Shown here piece after piece: positions 12,876 to 62,572 of a stretch of DNA of 64,000 bases (its first letter is position 1; the number at the start of each line of letters is the position of its first letter). The position numbers and the translations under genes are program-made. The notes under the pieces were generated by a model. The model searched no databases and was not told where the DNA came from. It saw only the letters and a list, made by a program, of their open reading frames with translations. This stretch comes from Deltaproteobacteria bacterium (GTDB lineage Bacteria; Desulfobacterota; DSM-4660; Desulfatiglandales; HGW-15). Location of the stretch: positions 4,434 through 68,433 of the forward strand of contig JAFDEF010000007.1 of the NCBI GenBank assembly GCA_019310485.1. The letters run 5' to 3'.

Positions 12876-14324
12876 ATGGCAGAGAAAGAATTTTTGGATT
12901 TTTGCTCCTTCCTCTCCGGGGTGAGCCTGGCATCTGTGCCACAAAGTGTCGTAGATCACGCCAAGCTGGTGCTGCTGGACACGCTTGGTGTCGTTATTGC
13001 TGGTTCGCAAAACGCTGAAGTAGACAAAATTGCAAAGCATCTTTGCCTAATTGGCAACCGGGACAGAAGTGCCACATGGCCTGGGAGGCAAGAGCGTTTC
13101 AATCCTTTGGACGCGGCTCTGGTTAGCGGTATTTCGGGTTCAAGCCTTGAATATGAGGAAGGTAACTCCAGGGCCATGGGCCATCCTGCGATTCAGCTCA
13201 TCCCGGGGCTTATGGCTGCTTGCGAATCGGAAAACCTGACAGGGGAAAGGGTGCTGAGGGGTCTTATTGCGGGCTACGAGGCGGGCAGCAGGGTGAGCCG
13301 TGCTTCCTCAATCAGAAAGGGCCTTCATCCGACCGGAACATGGGGTGTAGTGGGATGTGCACTCGCTGTGGCGTGTGCATCTGGAAAAAAGCCCCAAGAT
13401 CTGGTTCAGATTTTAAACATCGCTTCGTCCTTTGCTCTTTCTCCTTATGTGAAAAACTCTTTTGTGGGGAAAAACGTAGCAGCAACGTTTGCAGGAGTTA
13501 CAAACTACCTGGGGTTGCTTGCAAATCTTTTTTTTGACAGTGGCATCCGGGCTGACGAGAGCAGCTTCAAAATGACCTTTTCCAGGTTTGTCTCAGATGA
13601 TTTCGAGCCGGATCTTCTCTATGATAATCTTGGAAAAGAATACGCAATAGCCGAAAATTACTTCAAGCCTTACCCAACATGCCGGTTTACCCATCCTTCA
13701 CTTGACGCCCTGAAAGCTATCTTGGAGAGGGAGCAGGTCAATCCCGAAGATGTTGCCCGCGTTAAGGTCTGGAGCTTCAGGGCAGCAGTTCATACTTCTT
13801 CCAGCCCGCCGTCAAATGCCGAGGCCATGCGTTTCTCAACCCCTTATCTTGTTGCCGTGATGCTGGTTTATGGAAATATCAACCTTGGAATAATGAACTT
13901 CCCCGCCGCAAGCAGCGGGGTATCAATCGGAAACCATCTTAACCGCCCCAAGGGGCGGGGAATCAAACCCTTGTCCGCCTCTGGCGGATTGAAAGACGAA
14001 CTGATCGAGGATCATAAAATAAAGGACCTTGCTGCCAGGGTTGAAATGATTCACTCTCGTGAATACGAAAGAATGCTGCCCAGGCACAATCCTGCCAGGG
14101 TTACCGTTCAGCTCAAGGATGGGCGAGAGTTTACCCATGAAACCCTAAACTGCAGGGGAGATCCTTTAAACCCATTGACAGGAGAAGAAGTATCACAAAA
14201 ATTCCTGTCACTCGCAGGGCCTGTCATAGGAGACAAAAGAGCTGAACAGTTTTTGGAGAAGCTCAAGAATCTTGAGTCAGAGAAGCACATTCAAGAATTA
14301 ACGGCACTGCTGAGGCCTGCTTAG
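12876..14324 (+). CDS. MmgE/PrpD family protein carrying a 32-codon repeat-derived insertion
   Basis: 482 aa with PrpD-like sequence throughout (VLLDTLGVVIAGS, HPTGTWGVVG, KPYPTCRFTHP). Residues NFPAASSGVSIGNHLNRPKGRGIKPLSASGGL are encoded by a family-1 repeat. Confidence 0.85.
   Translation: MAEKEFLDFCSFLSGVSLASVPQSVVDHAKLVLLDTLGVVIAGSQNAEVDKIAKHLCLIGNRDRSATWPGRQERFNPLDAALVSGISGSSLEYEEGNSRAMGHPAIQLIPGLMAACESENLTGERVLRGLIAGYEAGSRVSRASSIRKGLHPTGTWGVVGCALAVACASGKKPQDLVQILNIASSFALSPYVKNSFVGKNVAATFAGVTNYLGLLANLFFDSGIRADESSFKMTFSRFVSDDFEPDLLYDNLGKEYAIAENYFKPYPTCRFTHPSLDALKAILEREQVNPEDVARVKVWSFRAAVHTSSSPPSNAEAMRFSTPYLVAVMLVYGNINLGIMNFPAASSGVSIGNHLNRPKGRGIKPLSASGGLKDELIEDHKIKDLAARVEMIHSREYERMLPRHNPARVTVQLKDGREFTHETLNCRGDPLNPLTGEEVSQKFLSLAGPVIGDKRAEQFLEKLKNLESEKHIQELTALLRPA
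13892..13992 (-). repeat. Family-1 structured repeat, subfamily 1b short form, inside the MmgE/PrpD CDS
   Basis: Near-identical to the copy at 59021-59121 in reverse orientation. Flanked by AATGA and ATTGA. Removing 96 nt leaves an intact frame (..GIM-K-DELIE..). Confidence 0.9.
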
Positions 14325-14937: not shown

Positions 14938-15103
14938 AGCTTAAGGCAGCGAGCCGGGGTGTATCAAGGGAGAAATTCCCGCCAGGCTGTAGATTGCCTT
15001 CATCGATTTCCTCTTTGCCAGGCCCTCACCGCGGCTCCTTAACAAGATGTGAAACATTAGGGCTCTTTGGCCCTTTCTGGTGCTTATATACGGGGTTTTG
15101 TTT

Positions 15104-15222
15104 TTAATCCGCCAGAGGCGGATTAATCCGCCAGAGGCGGACGAGGGTTCAATTCCCCGCCCCTCAGGGTGTTAAGAAAATTTCCGATTGATACCCCGTC
15201 CGCTTGCGGCGGGGTAGTTAAT
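15104..15222 (+). repeat. Family-1 structured repeat, subfamily 1a long form
   Basis: 119 bp, bounded by TTAAT at both ends. About 95% identical by hand count to 62454-62572. Carries a tandem CCGCCAGAGGCGG hairpin module plus two more GC hairpins. Confidence 0.9.
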
Positions 15223-31052: not shown

Positions 31053-31090
31053 AGCAGCGCTCAATGGCCGCTTGGACTTTGTTCAGAAAA

Positions 31091-31199
31091 GTAAACCCTG
31101 TGGAATTTCGCACGGGGCATTGAACCCCGTGCGAAAAAGCGGAAAAAAACTTTATTTACCATCCCCGTGCTCCCGCACGGGGCGTTCCTACGGGGTAAA
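31091..31199 (+). repeat. Family-2 structured repeat, in the ilvN-ilvC spacer
   Basis: 109 bp, starting GTAAACCC and ending GGGGTAAA. Hairpins TCGCACGGGG/CCCCGTGCGA and CCCCGTGC/GCACGGGG. Nearly identical to 39048-39156, 46784-46892 and 61823-61930. Confidence 0.9.
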
Positions 31200-39030: not shown

Positions 39031-39047
39031 GGTACGATTTAGCTAAA

Positions 39048-39156
39048 GTAAACCCTGTGGAATTTCGCACGGGGCATTGAACCCCGTGCGAAAAAGCGGG
39101 AAAAAACTTTATTTACCATCCCCGTGCTCCCGCATGGGGCATTCCTACGGGGTAAA
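39048..39156 (+). repeat. Family-2 structured repeat, in the dsrB-dsrD spacer
   Basis: 109 bp in the same orientation as the other three copies. Its 3' end (GGGGTAAA) runs directly into the dsrD SD (AAGGAG). Confidence 0.9.
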
Positions 39157-40746: not shown

Positions 40747-40865
40747 ATGAACTTCCCCGCCGCAAGCAGCGGGGTATCAATCGGAAACCATCTTAACCGC
40801 CCCAAGGGGCGGGGAATCAAAGCCTTGTCCGCCAGAGGCGGATTAATCCGCCTCTGGCGGATTGC
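40746..40865 (-). repeat. Family-1 structured repeat, subfamily 1b long form
   Basis: About 120 bp, inverted relative to 59021-59121, with one extra 19-nt CCGCC...GGCGG module. It begins at the last base of the ykgJ-like stop codon. Confidence 0.9.
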
Positions 40866-43662: not shown

Positions 43663-43781
43663 TTAATCCGCCAGGGGCGGACGAGCCCGCCAGAGGCGGA
43701 CAAGGGTTCAATTCCCCGCCCCTTGGGGCGTTAAGAAAATTTCCGATTGATACCCCGTCCGCTTGCAGCGGGGTAGTTAAT
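43663..43781 (+). repeat. Family-1 structured repeat, subfamily 1a
   Basis: 119 bp bounded by TTAAT at both ends. Lies in the convergent gap between the ATP-grasp gene and yjbQ. Confidence 0.9.
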
Positions 43782-44273: not shown

Positions 44274-44384
44274 TCAATCCGCCAGAGGCGGATTAATCCG
44301 CCTCTGGCGGACAAGGGTTTGATTCCCCGCCCCTTGGGGCGGTTAAGATGGTTTCCGATTGATACCCCGCTGCTTGCGGCGGGG
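44274..44384 (+). repeat. Family-1 structured repeat, subfamily 1b long form with divergent 3' end
   Basis: Starts with TCAAT and carries the double first module. The usual AAGTTCAAT end is missing. It sits between yjbQ and the upstream hypothetical gene. Confidence 0.85.
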
Positions 44385-44402
44385 CCTCCTCAGGATAACG
44401 AA

Positions 44403-46326: not shown

Positions 46327-46783
46327 GGAAAGCTATGCTCCACTCTATCAAGGAATTGGCTCCAGCTCCTTGCATACGCAACCGCATGCTGAAGGAGCCT
46401 TTATTCAAACACTAAAGCAAAATTATTTTACCTGCACAAAAAAATCAACATAAAACGCATGCCCCCATCCACCATTAAGCCATCATGTGCAGCACCTGCA
46501 AGCCCGTTTGGTCGAGCTCAAGAAGATCCCCCAATGCCCCCTGTTGTGCTTCAAACCACGTGGTCTGAAAAGGTCATCTCGCTCCAAAGTCCCAGCTTCT
46601 ATCTCGGTTAGAGAGGCATCGACGACATGGTGTCTCACCCGCCCCACCCTTGAGTGACATTTAGCGCAGCCTCGGTTACAGTCGCCCTCCGTTTAAGGAA
46701 ACAGGAGCTATATGAGCCATTTTAACAGCGAACCCATGCTGGAGCTCCTTGACTTCAGGCACGAGGCCTTTTTATAGTAAAAA

Positions 46784-46892
46784 GTAAACCCTGTGGAATT
46801 TCGCACGGGGCATTGAACCCCGTGCGAAAAAGCGGAAAAAAACTTTATTTACCATCCCCGTGCTCCCGCACGGGGCGTTCCTACGGGGTAAA
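46784..46892 (+). repeat. Family-2 structured repeat, 91 nt upstream of rnc
   Basis: 109 bp. By hand alignment, identical to the 31091-31199 copy. Confidence 0.9.
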
Positions 46893-57692: not shown

Positions 57693-58888
57693 AGGGCAAG
57701 AATGTCGTTGTAGGTGTGACAGGGGGAATTGCCGCTTACAAGGCGGCGGAGCTTGTGCGCCTGCTTGTCAAAGCAGGCGCACAAACAAGGGTTGCCATGA
57801 CTGCTCATGCCACAAAGTTTGTAACCCCTCTCACCTTTGAAGTTCTCTCAGAAAACAGAGTAGTATGGGATATGTGGGACGGGCAAGAAAGTCCCATGTC
57901 TCATATCACCATGAGTCAGGAGGCCGACCTTATCATAATTGCCCCCGCAACAGCGAACTTCATCGGAAAAATTGCACACGGTATTGCGGATGATTTTCTT
58001 TCTACCTCAATTGTTGCCGCTACAGGAAAGATGCTTGTGTGTCCCTCTATGAATAGCCGCATGCTCTCGAACCCTGCAGTGCAGGAGAACATCACTCTGC
58101 TGAGAAAAAGGGGATACACTGTTATGGCTCCACAAGAGGGTGAGCTTGCATGCGGGGAAAGAGGTGTGGGCAGGCTTCCTGAACCGGAACAGATCCTGGA
58201 GCAGGCCAGGATTTTGCTCTCAGAACATGATCTTTCAGGAATGAAAGTACTCGTTACCGCTGGTGCTACGGTAGAACCGATTGACCCTGTGAGGTACATT
58301 ACAAACAGGTCAAGTGGCAAAATGGGTTACGCTTTGGCTAGAGCCGCTGCTCTCAGGGGTGCGGAAGTAATGCTTGTGAGCGGTCCCACCTCCCTTAACC
58401 CACCCCGCAATGTTAAAGTTTTCAGAGTGAAGACAGCCGCAGAGATGAGAGATGCGGTTCTTGGCCACCACGCGGAATGTGATGTTGTTATCAAGGCAGC
58501 CGCTGTCCTTGATTACAAGCCACGGAGACAATCGAAGACCAAGATAAAAAAGCTGGAGGAAATCCAGTCTCTTGAATTGGTACGAAATCCTGATATCCTT
58601 GCAGAGCTCGGGAGACGCAGAAGCGGAAAGAGGTCTCTGTTGGTCGGATTTGCGGCGGAGACCCACGATCTTATGAGCAATGCGAGGGAAAAGCTTCGAA
58701 AGAAAAACCTGGACATGATCATAGCTAATGACGTTTCCAGAGAAGATGCAGGGTTTGAATCGGACACTAATGCAGTTAAAATTATTCACAGGGATGGCCG
58801 CGTGGAAGAGCTTCCACTCATGACAAAGGAAGACCTTGCAGATCGTATTCTGGACAGAGTCAAGAAACTATGGAAAGAAACAGCCTAG
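57689..58888 (+). CDS. coaBC: Bifunctional phosphopantothenoylcysteine decarboxylase / phosphopantothenate-cysteine ligase
   Basis: 399 aa with a flavoprotein N-terminus (VVGVTGGIAAYK, PAMN-like CPSMN) and a CoaB C-terminal domain. Confidence 0.95.
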   Translation: MKGKNVVVGVTGGIAAYKAAELVRLLVKAGAQTRVAMTAHATKFVTPLTFEVLSENRVVWDMWDGQESPMSHITMSQEADLIIIAPATANFIGKIAHGIADDFLSTSIVAATGKMLVCPSMNSRMLSNPAVQENITLLRKRGYTVMAPQEGELACGERGVGRLPEPEQILEQARILLSEHDLSGMKVLVTAGATVEPIDPVRYITNRSSGKMGYALARAAALRGAEVMLVSGPTSLNPPRNVKVFRVKTAAEMRDAVLGHHAECDVVIKAAAVLDYKPRRQSKTKIKKLEEIQSLELVRNPDILAELGRRRSGKRSLLVGFAAETHDLMSNAREKLRKKNLDMIIANDVSREDAGFESDTNAVKIIHRDGRVEELPLMTKEDLADRILDRVKKLWKETA

Positions 58889-59691
58889 AGCCGGTTGAGG
58901 AATTGAGGCAAGTGGTCAGTCACTTGAAAAAACTAATGACCTATGACCGGGACATGGGGCTTGAGCCCCCCATACTGTCTTCTTCAACCCTGGAGTATCT
59001 CCGGAAAGAAGCCTCAAGTTTCAATCCGCCAGAGGCGGACGAGGGTTTGATTCCCCGCCCCTTGGGGCGGTTAAGATGGTTTCCGACTGATACCCCGCTG
59101 CTCGCGGCGGGGAAGTTCAATTCCCTGGAGGATCTTAGAGATTTCATTGGTGAATGCAAGAGATGCAAGCTCTGGCGCGGGAGGACAAATCTGGTGTTTG
59201 GTGAGGGCTCACATAAGGCTCGATTGGTCTTTGTGGGTGAAGGACCCGGAAGGGAAGAAGACATAGCAGGTAGGCCCTTTGTTGGCGAAGCGGGCAAACT
59301 CTTGACCAGAATAATAGAAAACGGAATGGGGCTGAAACGAAATGAAGTTTACATTTGTAATGTTGTAAAATGCCGCCCTCCACGCAACCGGGACCCCGAA
59401 AAAGATGAAATTGAGGCCTGCTTACCCTTTCTGGAGCAGCAGCTTAGAATAATCAGCCCCGAGGTCATCTGCACTCTAGGCAGGGTGTCGGCTCAGGCCT
59501 TGCTCGGGGGGGAGTTCAAGATCACGCGCGAGAGAGGGAAGTGGTTTTCTTTTATGGATATCCCTCTGATGCCCACATACCATCCGGCATATCTTTTGCG
59601 AAACCCATCGGCAAAACGCGATGTATGGGAGGATGCCAAAAAAATTATGAGACACCTGGGGCTGGAGGTCAGGGAGAATGCTCAGGCGTAG
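58870..59691 (+). CDS. Family-4 uracil-DNA glycosylase carrying a 32-codon repeat-derived insertion
   Basis: CKRCKL..R.NLVFGEG, GEGPGREEDIAGRPFVG and HPAYLLR are family-4 UDG motifs. The N-terminal linker contains NPPEADEGLIPRPLGRLRWFPTDTPLLAAGKF, encoded by a family-1 repeat. Confidence 0.85.
   Translation: MERNSLEPVEELRQVVSHLKKLMTYDRDMGLEPPILSSSTLEYLRKEASSFNPPEADEGLIPRPLGRLRWFPTDTPLLAAGKFNSLEDLRDFIGECKRCKLWRGRTNLVFGEGSHKARLVFVGEGPGREEDIAGRPFVGEAGKLLTRIIENGMGLKRNEVYICNVVKCRPPRNRDPEKDEIEACLPFLEQQLRIISPEVICTLGRVSAQALLGGEFKITRERGKWFSFMDIPLMPTYHPAYLLRNPSAKRDVWEDAKKIMRHLGLEVRENAQA
59021..59121 (+). repeat. Family-1 structured repeat, subfamily 1b short form, inside the UDG CDS
   Basis: TCAAT at both ends. 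Deleting 96 nt restores gcc tca agt ttc aat tcc ctg gag (ASSFNSLE) in frame. Confidence 0.9.
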
Positions 59692-61088: not shown

Positions 61089-61826
61089 ATGTTTTGGATA
61101 TTGGCCGTGGTTTTGATTATCTTTTTTCTGGCTTCCGCTATAAGGATCCTGAGAGAGTATGAGCGGGGGGTCATCTTCAGGCTGGGCAGGGTGATCAAGA
61201 CCAAGGGGCCTGGCCTGATAATTCTAATACCTATTGTGGATAAAATGGTGAAAGTAAGCCTTCGCCTTGTGGCCATGGACGTTCCGCCCCAGGATGTAAT
61301 CACCAGGGATAATGTTTCCGTGAAAGTCAATGCTGTAATCTATTTCAGAGTCATGAACCCGACAAAGGCCACGATTGAAGTGGAAAACTACCTTTTTGCC
61401 ACCTCGCAGCTGGCCCAAACCACCCTGAGGAGTGTTTGTGGGCAGGTGGAGCTGGACGAGCTTCTCGGAGAACGAGAAAAGATCAATACCAGGCTCCAAA
61501 CCATTCTAGACGCCCATACCGATCCCTGGGGGATAAAGGTGTCCACCGTCGAGGTTAAACATATTGATCTGCCCCAAGAGATGCAAAGAGCAATGGCAAA
61601 ACAGGCGGAAGCCGAAAGAGAAAGAAGGGCAAAGGTCATAAATGCGGAAGGGGAGTTTCAGGCGGCAGATCGTCTGACCGAGGCGGCAGGCATAATCGCC
61701 AAGCATCCGGAGGCGCTCCAGTTAAGATATCTTCAGACACTGCGGGAAATATCCTCGGAAAGTAATTCCACGACTTTTTTCCCCATACCGATTGAACTTT
61801 TCAAGCCCTTCATAAAGAAGGAGTAA
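61089..61826 (+). CDS. SPFH/band-7 (stomatin-like) protein
   Basis: 245 aa with an N-terminal TM helix, [13 protein letters not shown], and a coiled [12 protein letters not shown] region. Confidence 0.9.
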
Positions 61827-61930
61827 ACCCTGTCGAATTTCGCACGGGGCATTGAACCCCGTGCGAAAAAGCGGAAAAAGCTTTATTGACCATCCCCGTG
61901 CTCCCGCACGGGGCATTCCTACGGGGTAAA
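61823..61930 (+). repeat. Family-2 structured repeat that overlaps the SPFH stop codon
   Basis: 108 bp, the most divergent of the four copies. Its 5' GTAAA includes the TAA stop (61824-61826). Confidence 0.9.
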
Positions 61931-62002
61931 AATTATCTTGACAAAAGTTGGACTGGACAGGCAAAGATTCTATGCCAATTTTGTGAACAGGAGCGTAGAT
62001 TC

Positions 62003-62453: not shown

Positions 62454-62572
62454 TTAATCCGCCAGAGGCGGATTAATCCGCCAGGGGCGGACGAGGGTTC
62501 AATTCCCCGCTCCTTGGGGCGTTAAGAAAATTTCCGATTGACACCCCGTCCGCTTGCGGCGGGGTAGTTAAT
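62454..62572 (+). repeat. Family-1 structured repeat, subfamily 1a long form
   Basis: 119 bp bounded by TTAAT at both ends. Lies between the terminator and ispD. Confidence 0.9.

Follow-up and report, generated by a model that had tools for sequence, protein, structure and literature searches.

We analyzed a 64,000-nt stretch of DNA from a Deltaproteobacteria bacterium (contig JAFDEF010000007.1, positions 4,434 to 68,433; hereafter the window), which carries seven copies of a short hairpin-rich repeat, Family 1, a high local density. The structure of the copies, the homology of their ends, their insertion target and a precise presence/absence polymorphism, all observed directly, make it highly probable that the Family 1 repeats are palindrome-associated transposable elements (PATEs), in which the left end of an IS200-group insertion sequence is fused to its right end without the transposase gene tnpA. 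PATEs are defined as elements that have no terminal inverted repeats, produce no target-site duplication, carry hairpins at their ends, insert 3′ of a tetra- or pentanucleotide, and consist of ends only (PMC7290912). Family 1 is a well-documented case of this known kind of element, and no new principle is involved.

Near-identical strains were recovered from public assemblies by looking up the neighbouring proteins, and at the locus of one window copy, referred to as the focal copy, they display three alleles whose flanks are 100% identical among strains. Two independent assemblies (L004 and L121) carry an empty allele, one strain (L118) carries a 96-nt allele with a single 19-nt module, and the window as well as other strains carry a 115-nt allele with two modules, the net insertions being 96 and 115 nt. 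The features of the focal copy are as follows.

15107-15221, + strand: focal copy, subfamily 1a, two modules; 115-nt unit ATCCGCC...GTAGTTAA, absent from L004 and L121 (15106-15220 is equally possible, given a 1-nt ambiguity).
15103-15106, + strand: TTTA target tetranucleotide in the left flank, equivalent of the left cleavage site; present in the empty alleles L004 and L121.
15109-15140, + strand: two tandem hairpin-A modules, CCGCC-AGA-GGCGG at 15109-15121 and 15128-15140, with a 19-nt period.
15148-15154, + strand: TTCAATT, candidate guide immediately 5′ of the left-end hairpin (TTTGATT in subfamily 1b); a putative assignment to which exceptions exist.
15155-15171, + strand: imperfect palindrome of the left end (hairpin B), present here in degenerate form (CCCCGCCCCTCAGGGTG); homologous hairpins lie upstream of tnpA in L136, L138, and L145.
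15172-15193, + strand: segment between hairpins B and C, aligned against intact insertion sequences.
15194-15221, + strand: hairpin C, the right-end imperfect palindrome (15194-15214), with the linker and the right cleavage-site equivalent TAGTTAA.

The empty site reads GTTTTTA|TTTACG and leaves a junction ambiguity of just 1 nt (an A). An initial annotation of this DNA had proposed that the TTAAT pentamers bounding the focal copy were either target-site duplications or part of the element, and had named the empty-site comparison as the test of duplication. Given that the empty site contains no TTAAT, the pentamers are composites of flank and element terminus: the left TTAAT consists of 3 nt of flank (TTA) and 2 nt of element (AT), and the right one of 4 nt of element and 1 nt of flank. 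Duplication is thereby excluded. The complete identity of the flanks at this polymorphic site points to a very recent event. The recent spread of a dense, non-autonomous family, suggested initially from the similarity of the copies, is supported (93-97% identity within subfamilies).

Scanning metagenomes for the core of the element yielded 88 loci, and in a scan of genome representatives the core was present in a single metagenome-assembled genome (MAG) only, that of Desulfobacteraceae bacterium HyVt-17. An nhmmer profile recovered 127 near-full copies at ~74 unique loci, and the 50 unique copies with both flanks gave the consensus junctions TTYA^[ATCCGCC...GTT(C/A)A]^TT. The left flank carries T at positions −4 and −3 (49 of 50 copies each), C or T at −2 (48 of 50), and A at −1 (44 of 50), and the right flank carries T at +1 (48 of 50) and +2 (40 of 50), positions farther out being random. 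Models based on duplication of 5 bp, TTAA, TA, or TNA are each off by one nucleotide compared with the empty site, which also contradicts models of recombinase crossover with a TTA or TTAA core. The same site contradicts the models for an integron attC; moreover, the GTTAATT/GTTCATT right end is unlike GTTRRRY, the left end has no inverse core, and there is no array or intI context.

The junctions bear directly on the possibility that Family 1 is a classical MITE (miniature inverted-repeat transposable element) produced by a DDE transposase, which would entail terminal inverted repeats together with duplication of the 5-bp pentamers, or of TA or TNA as in IS630 and IS5 derivatives. RNA folds of subfamily 1a do pair ~19 of 27 nt of the module region over a long range with the hairpin-C region, in the manner of terminal inverted repeats, subfamily 1b copies are flanked at both ends by TTCA (up to TTCAAT), and a fragment of an IS630-family transposase adjoins the relative found in Trichlorobacter. 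However, the empty site has 1 nt in common with both junctions, the 5-bp, TA, and TTA models mispredict it, and the 1a copies differ systematically between TTTA on the left and TTAA on the right. The ATCC... and ...GTTCA termini are not inverted copies of each other, the ~19/27-nt pairing involves an accessory module, and the ends are homologous to those of insertion sequences with a Y1 transposase, all of which leaves a DDE origin a very slim chance. The name MITE, used in the initial annotation, cannot be kept in its strict sense for elements with neither terminal inverted repeats nor target-site duplication.

The homology of the ends emerged from searches of plasmids and then of transposases. 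A BLAST search with the consensus against plasmids returned an unexpected match in Xenorhabdus, which, used as a query in turn, led to Klebsiella, Citrobacter, Pantoea, E. coli, Trichlorobacter, and the cyanobacterium Kovacikia and, over the left part only, to Piscirickettsia; a query with only the right end further retrieved Chroococcidiopsis, Ca. Manganitrophus, Salmonella, and Edwardsiella. Hairpins B and C and the termini ATC.../...TTCA are conserved in the full-length relatives examined, which lack the hairpin-A module. A candidate full-length insertion sequence beside the left-end-only matches in Piscirickettsia proved to be a variant non-coding element, and matches in Acinetobacter plasmids were discarded as chance (E ~2). 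A module-less copy with left and right ends also resides, once per plasmid and unannotated in the records, on small ColE1-like plasmids of Klebsiella, Enterobacter, and Raoultella (L130 962-1060 and ~22 others), which are 3.4-3.8 kb long and encode Rop.

In Chroococcidiopsis pB (L136 2500-2533), the right end shares 32 of 34 nt with subfamily 1a, the T bulge and TAGTT among them, and lies directly after the stop codon of a tnpA gene whose product contains the motifs YHLVFPAKYRR, HVHFLV, and YVKKQ and matches PF01797 at E = 2e-30; the left end is found upstream of the same gene (ATCTCTGCGGGTCAAATT-CCCCGCCGCTTTGCGGCG). In Citrobacter, a decayed tnpA C terminus is followed by the same right end. 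Used as a protein query, the transposase retrieved thousands of 147-aa IS200-type proteins, and the intact 147-aa transposase genes of L138 and L144-L150, which were fetched by protein identity and hence independently of DNA similarity, display the same left and right ends. At two or three sites, the intact insertion sequences show a left junction of ..TTCA|ATCTCT.. or ..TTAA|ATCTCT.. and a right junction of ..GTTCA|TT.., so that their boundaries and target are those of the window copies. The left- and right-end hairpins are nearly identical across Cyanobacteriota, Gammaproteobacteria, Nitrospirota, and Thermodesulfobacteriota. These shared ends, boundaries, and target argue that Family 1 is most probably a left end joined to a right end by deletion of tnpA. 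The autonomous relatives (L136 2006-2533; L144-L150) measure ~527 bp (left end 48 nt, tnpA 444 nt, right end 35 nt), which is very small for an insertion sequence, and the Chroococcidiopsis tnpA has an in-frame TGA. In the metagenome contig L147, comparison with L145 and L146 shows the left flank of one insertion-sequence site continuing into the right flank of another, which reflects either a chimeric assembly over the repeat or copies of the insertion sequence that recombined with each other.

The related transposase also allowed us to weigh a second explanation, namely that the copies are repetitive extragenic palindromes (REP) or REPIN-type elements kept by a domesticated REP-associated tyrosine transposase (RAYT). 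Such enzymes are Y1 HUH enzymes too, Family 1 copies are hairpin-rich, mostly intergenic, and clustered in number, and some of the related transposases are labelled ‘RayT’ by JGI. Yet the related transposase reaches 33-35 bits on the RAYT model NF047646 (cut-off 80), as compared with 135 bits on the IS200 model NF033573 (cut-off 55), and belongs to a multi-copy mobile insertion sequence with its own ends. Moreover, the copies lack a 5′-GTAG-hairpin unit, with GTAG present after hairpin C in 1a only and GAAG at this place in 1b, and they also occur inside two enzyme genes, one for a PrpD-like protein and one for a uracil-DNA glycosylase (UDG). A RAYT-dependent element is therefore distinctly improbable. 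The initial annotation had noted that the window holds no transposase, in agreement with our tblastn search for a Y1 enzyme, and had proposed mobilization in trans by a RAYT or an IS200/IS605-type enzyme; the end homology favors the latter and the low RAYT score speaks against the former.

Measured against the definition of PATEs, the copies show no duplication, a conserved tetranucleotide in the left flank, subterminal hairpins on the same strand, no true terminal inverted repeats, and ends homologous to those of a Y1 (PF01797) insertion sequence, while the units, 96-134 nt in size, lack tnpA and tnpB. A scheme of guides and cleavage sites is available for IS200/IS605-type transposition (PMC5934647), and the layout of Family 1 can tentatively be read along the same lines. 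On the top strand, the flanking TTYA is followed at the left boundary by AT, one or more 19-nt hairpin-A modules, a linker with the candidate guide TT(G/A)ATT, hairpin B, probable remnants of the surroundings of the tnpA start and stop, hairpin C, and (A/T)AGTT(C/A)A, after which the right boundary precedes the flanking TT. A Y1 HUH TnpA made elsewhere in the genome and acting in trans as a dimer would bind hairpins B and C on the single-stranded top strand, and would cut on the 3′ side of both the flanking TTYA and the terminal TT(C/A)A. A single-strand circle would be released, the donor being sealed precisely, and the circle would be pasted 3′ of another TTYA^TT without duplication, in a “peel-and-paste” process. 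Hairpin A represents an accessory left-end hairpin that most probably grows or shrinks by replication slippage or template switching.

A hint of guided targeting comes from the association between bases inside and outside the element. Among positions within the element, the G/A of TT(G/A)ATT, just 5′ of hairpin B, predicts the third target base best (mutual information 0.313), followed by a G 3′ of hairpin B (0.302) and by the right-end terminus (0.227). G goes with C (19:6) and A with T (20:3), such that 39 of 48 copies are concordant (Fisher p = 3e-4). This G/A versus C/T association matches the prediction of IS608-style guide pairing and is at most suggestive of it: within the family the guide and target columns are inseparable from subfamily descent, and simple complementarity between guide and target does not hold for E. 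coli ET745 or the P0366 insertion sequence.

These two facts belong to a set of observations that weigh against a PATE mobilized in trans by a TnpA. The geometry of the module-less relatives, in contrast, speaks for such a PATE: hairpin B is separated by 17-18 nt from the left cleavage point on its 5′ side, and hairpin C by 7 nt from the right cleavage point on its 3′ side, close to the distances of IS608 (~19 nt 5′ for the left hairpin and ~10 nt 3′ for the right one). In the window copies, hairpin A puts the left cleavage point at least 29 nt from hairpin B, beyond the IS608 distance, although hairpin A need not disturb the geometry because a hairpin would join its own two ends. No Y1 transposase was detected in the window by tblastn (best E = 9), and none of the searches of element-dense contigs and of the ~0.8 Mb of lineage loci (phmmer with IS200, motif regular expressions, and tblastn with the Chroococcidiopsis TnpA) revealed a tnpA; the latter absence is weak evidence since the pattern used for locus collection spans the tnpA deletion and hence excludes intact copies. 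Finally, the replication-linked orientation bias expected of such elements, with top strands on the lagging-strand template, appears only as a trend: five of the seven window copies lie on the G-rich strand, and over the wider set the split with respect to GC skew is 22:15 loci (18:8, p = 0.076, at |skew| >0.03).

Alignment of the copies in the window placed all seven at the coordinates and strands given by the initial annotation, and two core patterns matched the window solely at family sites, for an expectation of 0.00 and 0.16 after dinucleotide shuffling. Besides the focal copy, they are the following.

13894-13989, − strand: subfamily 1b, one module, 96 nt, in frame within an MmgE/PrpD-family gene (12876-14324, + strand).
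40748-40862, − strand: subfamily 1b, two modules, 115 nt, the loop of the second module flipped (perfect 34-nt palindrome), between convergent genes.
43666-43780, + strand: subfamily 1a, two modules with a CGAGC linker between them, 115 nt.
44277-44384, + strand: subfamily 1b, two modules, right terminus deleted.
59024-59119, + strand: subfamily 1b, 96 nt with a single module; in-frame insertion in the part of a family-4-type UDG gene (58870-59691, + strand) that encodes the N-terminal linker.
62457-62571, + strand: subfamily 1a, two modules, 115 nt, intergenic, upstream of ispD.

The three-hairpin architecture and the two subfamilies described initially were likewise borne out. Hairpin A is CCGCC-AGA-GGCGG, hairpin B is CCGCCCC-TT-GGGGCGG, and hairpin C is CCCCG(T)C(C/T)GC-TT-GCGGCGGGG; in single-strand DNA folds, the 1b centroid shows the three as separate hairpins and the module-less relatives show B and C. 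The latter two lie on one strand in direct orientation and have in common (T/C/A)GAT(T/A)-CCCCGC..C-loop-G..GCGG. They are almost invariant across phyla in the alignment of relatives, which makes a covariation test of them uninformative. Over the 96-nt unit, identity is 92.7-93.8% within 1a and 92.7-96.9% within 1b, as compared with 81-87% between them, and mixed 1a/1b forms exist in the wider data set.

The number of 19-nt modules takes values of 1, 2, 3, and at least 5, and differs between strains or samples at one and the same locus. The module loop is sometimes flipped and duplication occurred in more than one register, and such variation points to slippage or template switching. Since the module is absent from the plasmid-borne relatives and from the Chroococcidiopsis insertion sequence, sequence comparison indicates that hairpin A is an insertion in the left end; a CCGCC-loop-GGCGG palindrome is also found upstream of the insertion-sequence left end in the L138 relative. 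Copies differ between strains in other ways as well. The initial annotation described the copy at 44274 as having a truncated end; the end is indeed missing, through a deletion of ~47 nt specific to the window strain (44384-44395 region), L096-L101 retaining AAGTTCATT and the adjoining terminator-like hairpin. The deletion thus removes both the right terminus of the element and a terminator-like hairpin (GAGGGCCCC...GGGGCCCTC) downstream of a DUF6955 gene, whose stop codon lies ~19 nt from the deletion junction. At the left end of the same copy, 8-9 nt are missing in L100 and L101, and element termini appear to be hotspots for small deletions. At the site of the 43663-43781 copy, L098 displays a 67-nt internal deletion, and in L099 and L103 an insertion extends the first module's loop by 25 nt (TATAATTGTGCCATATGGCATTACC, with the palindrome TGCCATATGGCA inside it); the same 25-nt loop sequence is found in a module of an unrelated copy, L074.

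These variants raise the possibility that the copies are inactive fossils, their presence/absence and module differences being due to recombination, slippage, or deletion by the host. The absence of tnpA from the collected lineage loci, the many small indels in and around copies (deletions of ~47, 67, and 8-9 nt and the 25-nt loop insertion), and the module number, which clearly changes by slippage, would all fit. In contrast, in two assemblies the empty allele matches both element boundaries to the single nucleotide, with no flanking microhomology to drive a deletion, and neither the 93-97% identity within subfamilies nor the 100% identical flanks of the polymorphic site are expected of fossils, making this explanation improbable.

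Two window copies, 13892-13992 and 59021-59121, lie inside genes, a position not mentioned in the initial annotation: long open reading frames (ORFs) read through both of them. The former splits the Pfam C-terminal domain of the MmgE/PrpD-family protein. At the insert point, 32 residues are missing from all seven aligned homologues (identity up to 69%), and most homologues among the matches listed are ~450 aa long; as they are short by exactly 32 residues, the insertion is 96 nt. In the AlphaFold2 model of the PrpD-like protein, which is of good confidence overall (pLDDT 85, pTM 0.87), the sole low-confidence stretch, residues 342-372 (pLDDT <50), corresponds to the insert and forms a loop joining two helices. 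The UDG insertion was found in all strains seen; it sits in a variable N-terminal linker, and the closest homologue is short by ~29 residues at this site. In each subfamily only two of the six frames are open, and the in-gene copies use exactly those frames, so that the 96-nt one-module form can persist in genes at tolerant loops. In-gene copies are rare (4 of ~74 unique loci), and peptides encoded by the element occur in only 19 proteins of the public protein database searched, which excludes a widespread coding module. At L011 992-1405, a diverged copy makes up the last ~30 codons of a Nitro_FeMo-Co-family protein (...DYPAARSGVPIGNFLNAPRGGELNPRPPLAD*) and provides the C terminus and the stop codon of the gene.

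Combining these lines, one could imagine that 1a and 1b represent natural DNA-guided retargeting, in which a G-to-A change in the guide region and a neighbouring change 3′ of hairpin B would have shifted the preference from TTCA to TTTA, and that the slippage-prone module steps in-gene copies between a 96-nt in-frame form and 115- or 134-nt out-of-frame forms, which would act as reversible gene switches. We consider this joint proposal unlikely.

Strong hairpins could also reflect a functional structured RNA or a regulatory DNA site (a small RNA, a terminator, or an attC-like or oriT-like site) that is only incidentally repeated. The elements do give weak full-length Rfam matches to anti-hemB (E = 0.005 to 3), and single copies reside on many small mobilizable plasmids. 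However, no Rfam family was found at the gathering threshold in the window or in the elements, and the copies are found on either strand with respect to the genes beside them, as well as within coding sequence. Furthermore, no shared neighbouring gene was found around the plasmid copies, and homology to insertion-sequence ends accounts for the conservation, so that the chance of a functional RNA or site is close to negligible. The matches obtained at permissive E values (anti-hemB, Gut-1, and CRISPR direct repeats) were too weak to assign an Rfam identity. ARAGORN found no tRNA genes in the window. A T-arm-like sequence, GGGTTCAATTCCC, is present at 15145-15158, with equivalents in other copies (TTCAATT loop), and a tRNA reading of the T-loop-like motif GGTTCAATTCC was rejected, its pairing extending over only 3 bp with no ARAGORN call; the likeness is probably coincidental.

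Two further features were noted in or just beyond the window. A second, unrelated repeat family of 113 nt is present at 31087-31199, 39044-39156, 46780-46892, and 61819-61931, with 96-100% identity among three copies and 69% for the fourth. It displays two CCCCGTGC/GCACGGGG hairpins and constant terminal pentamers (GTAAA...GTAAA), the same design as Family 1, gave no match in the plasmid collection, and may be another ends-only IS200/IS605-type element. Just past the window end, at ~64.3 kb in window coordinates, L106-L115 reveal a strain difference between hemC and a TP_methylase/HEM4 gene, whose start is shifted by 86 nt (520 versus 549 aa between strains), and which may likewise reflect a polymorphic element.

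Compared with known systems, Family 1 shares with PATEs a left and a right end without tnpA, subterminal hairpins on one strand, the lack of terminal inverted repeats and duplication, insertion 3′ of a fixed tetranucleotide, and presumed mobilization in trans (PMC7290912). It differs from them by its very small size (96-nt unit), its seven copies in 64 kb, the variable number of the 19-nt left-end hairpin module, and the copies that lie in frame in genes. The tnpA-only IS200 group, of the ~527-bp cyanobacterial type, has homologous ends, the same start (ATC...) and end (...GTTCA), and the target TTNA^TT, whereas Family 1 has no transposase gene. IS608 serves as the mechanistic model and has comparable hairpin-to-cleavage distances, but its target and guide are TTAC/AAAG, as opposed to the TTYA target of Family 1. 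REP, BIME, and REPIN elements with RAYTs resemble Family 1 as short GC-rich hairpin repeats with a Y1 HUH enzyme and many, mostly intergenic copies; in contrast, the Family 1 parent is a bona fide multi-copy insertion sequence, there is no GTAG-hairpin unit, and copies are found in genes. Pneumococcal BOX elements also vary in the number of a short internal module, with unrelated sequences, and BOX is not known to be linked to IS200. Rickettsia palindromic elements (RPEs) and gene-inserting MITEs (QMITE1, intragenic ERIC, and BOX) are short palindromic repeats that lie in frame in unrelated housekeeping genes and add a peptide at a position compatible with the fold (PMC10969869), as the AlphaFold2 model suggests here. 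The likeness to RPEs is an analogy limited to the in-frame behaviour, and unlike RPEs, the in-gene copies of Family 1 form a small minority (4 of ~74 unique loci). In the literature, no paper was found to contain the sequence strings of the element.

The three-allele locus, the in-frame insertions in enzymes, the variable module, and the ends conserved across phyla are attractive features, none of which is conceptually new. Taken together, these results give exact boundaries, a defined target (TTYA^TT), and a parent, the ~527-bp IS200-group insertion sequence, to a repeat that was anonymous before and can now be annotated. This is of use for MAGs from hydrothermal sediments, in which repeats of this type interrupt the assemblies and give rise to spurious ORFs. 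The three-allele locus constitutes a natural experiment, documenting that wild populations gained or lost an IS200-derived PATE precisely, and the PrpD-like protein and the UDG indicate that enzymes can acquire peptides in frame from single-strand “peel-and-paste” elements, a behaviour made famous by the RPEs of Rickettsia.

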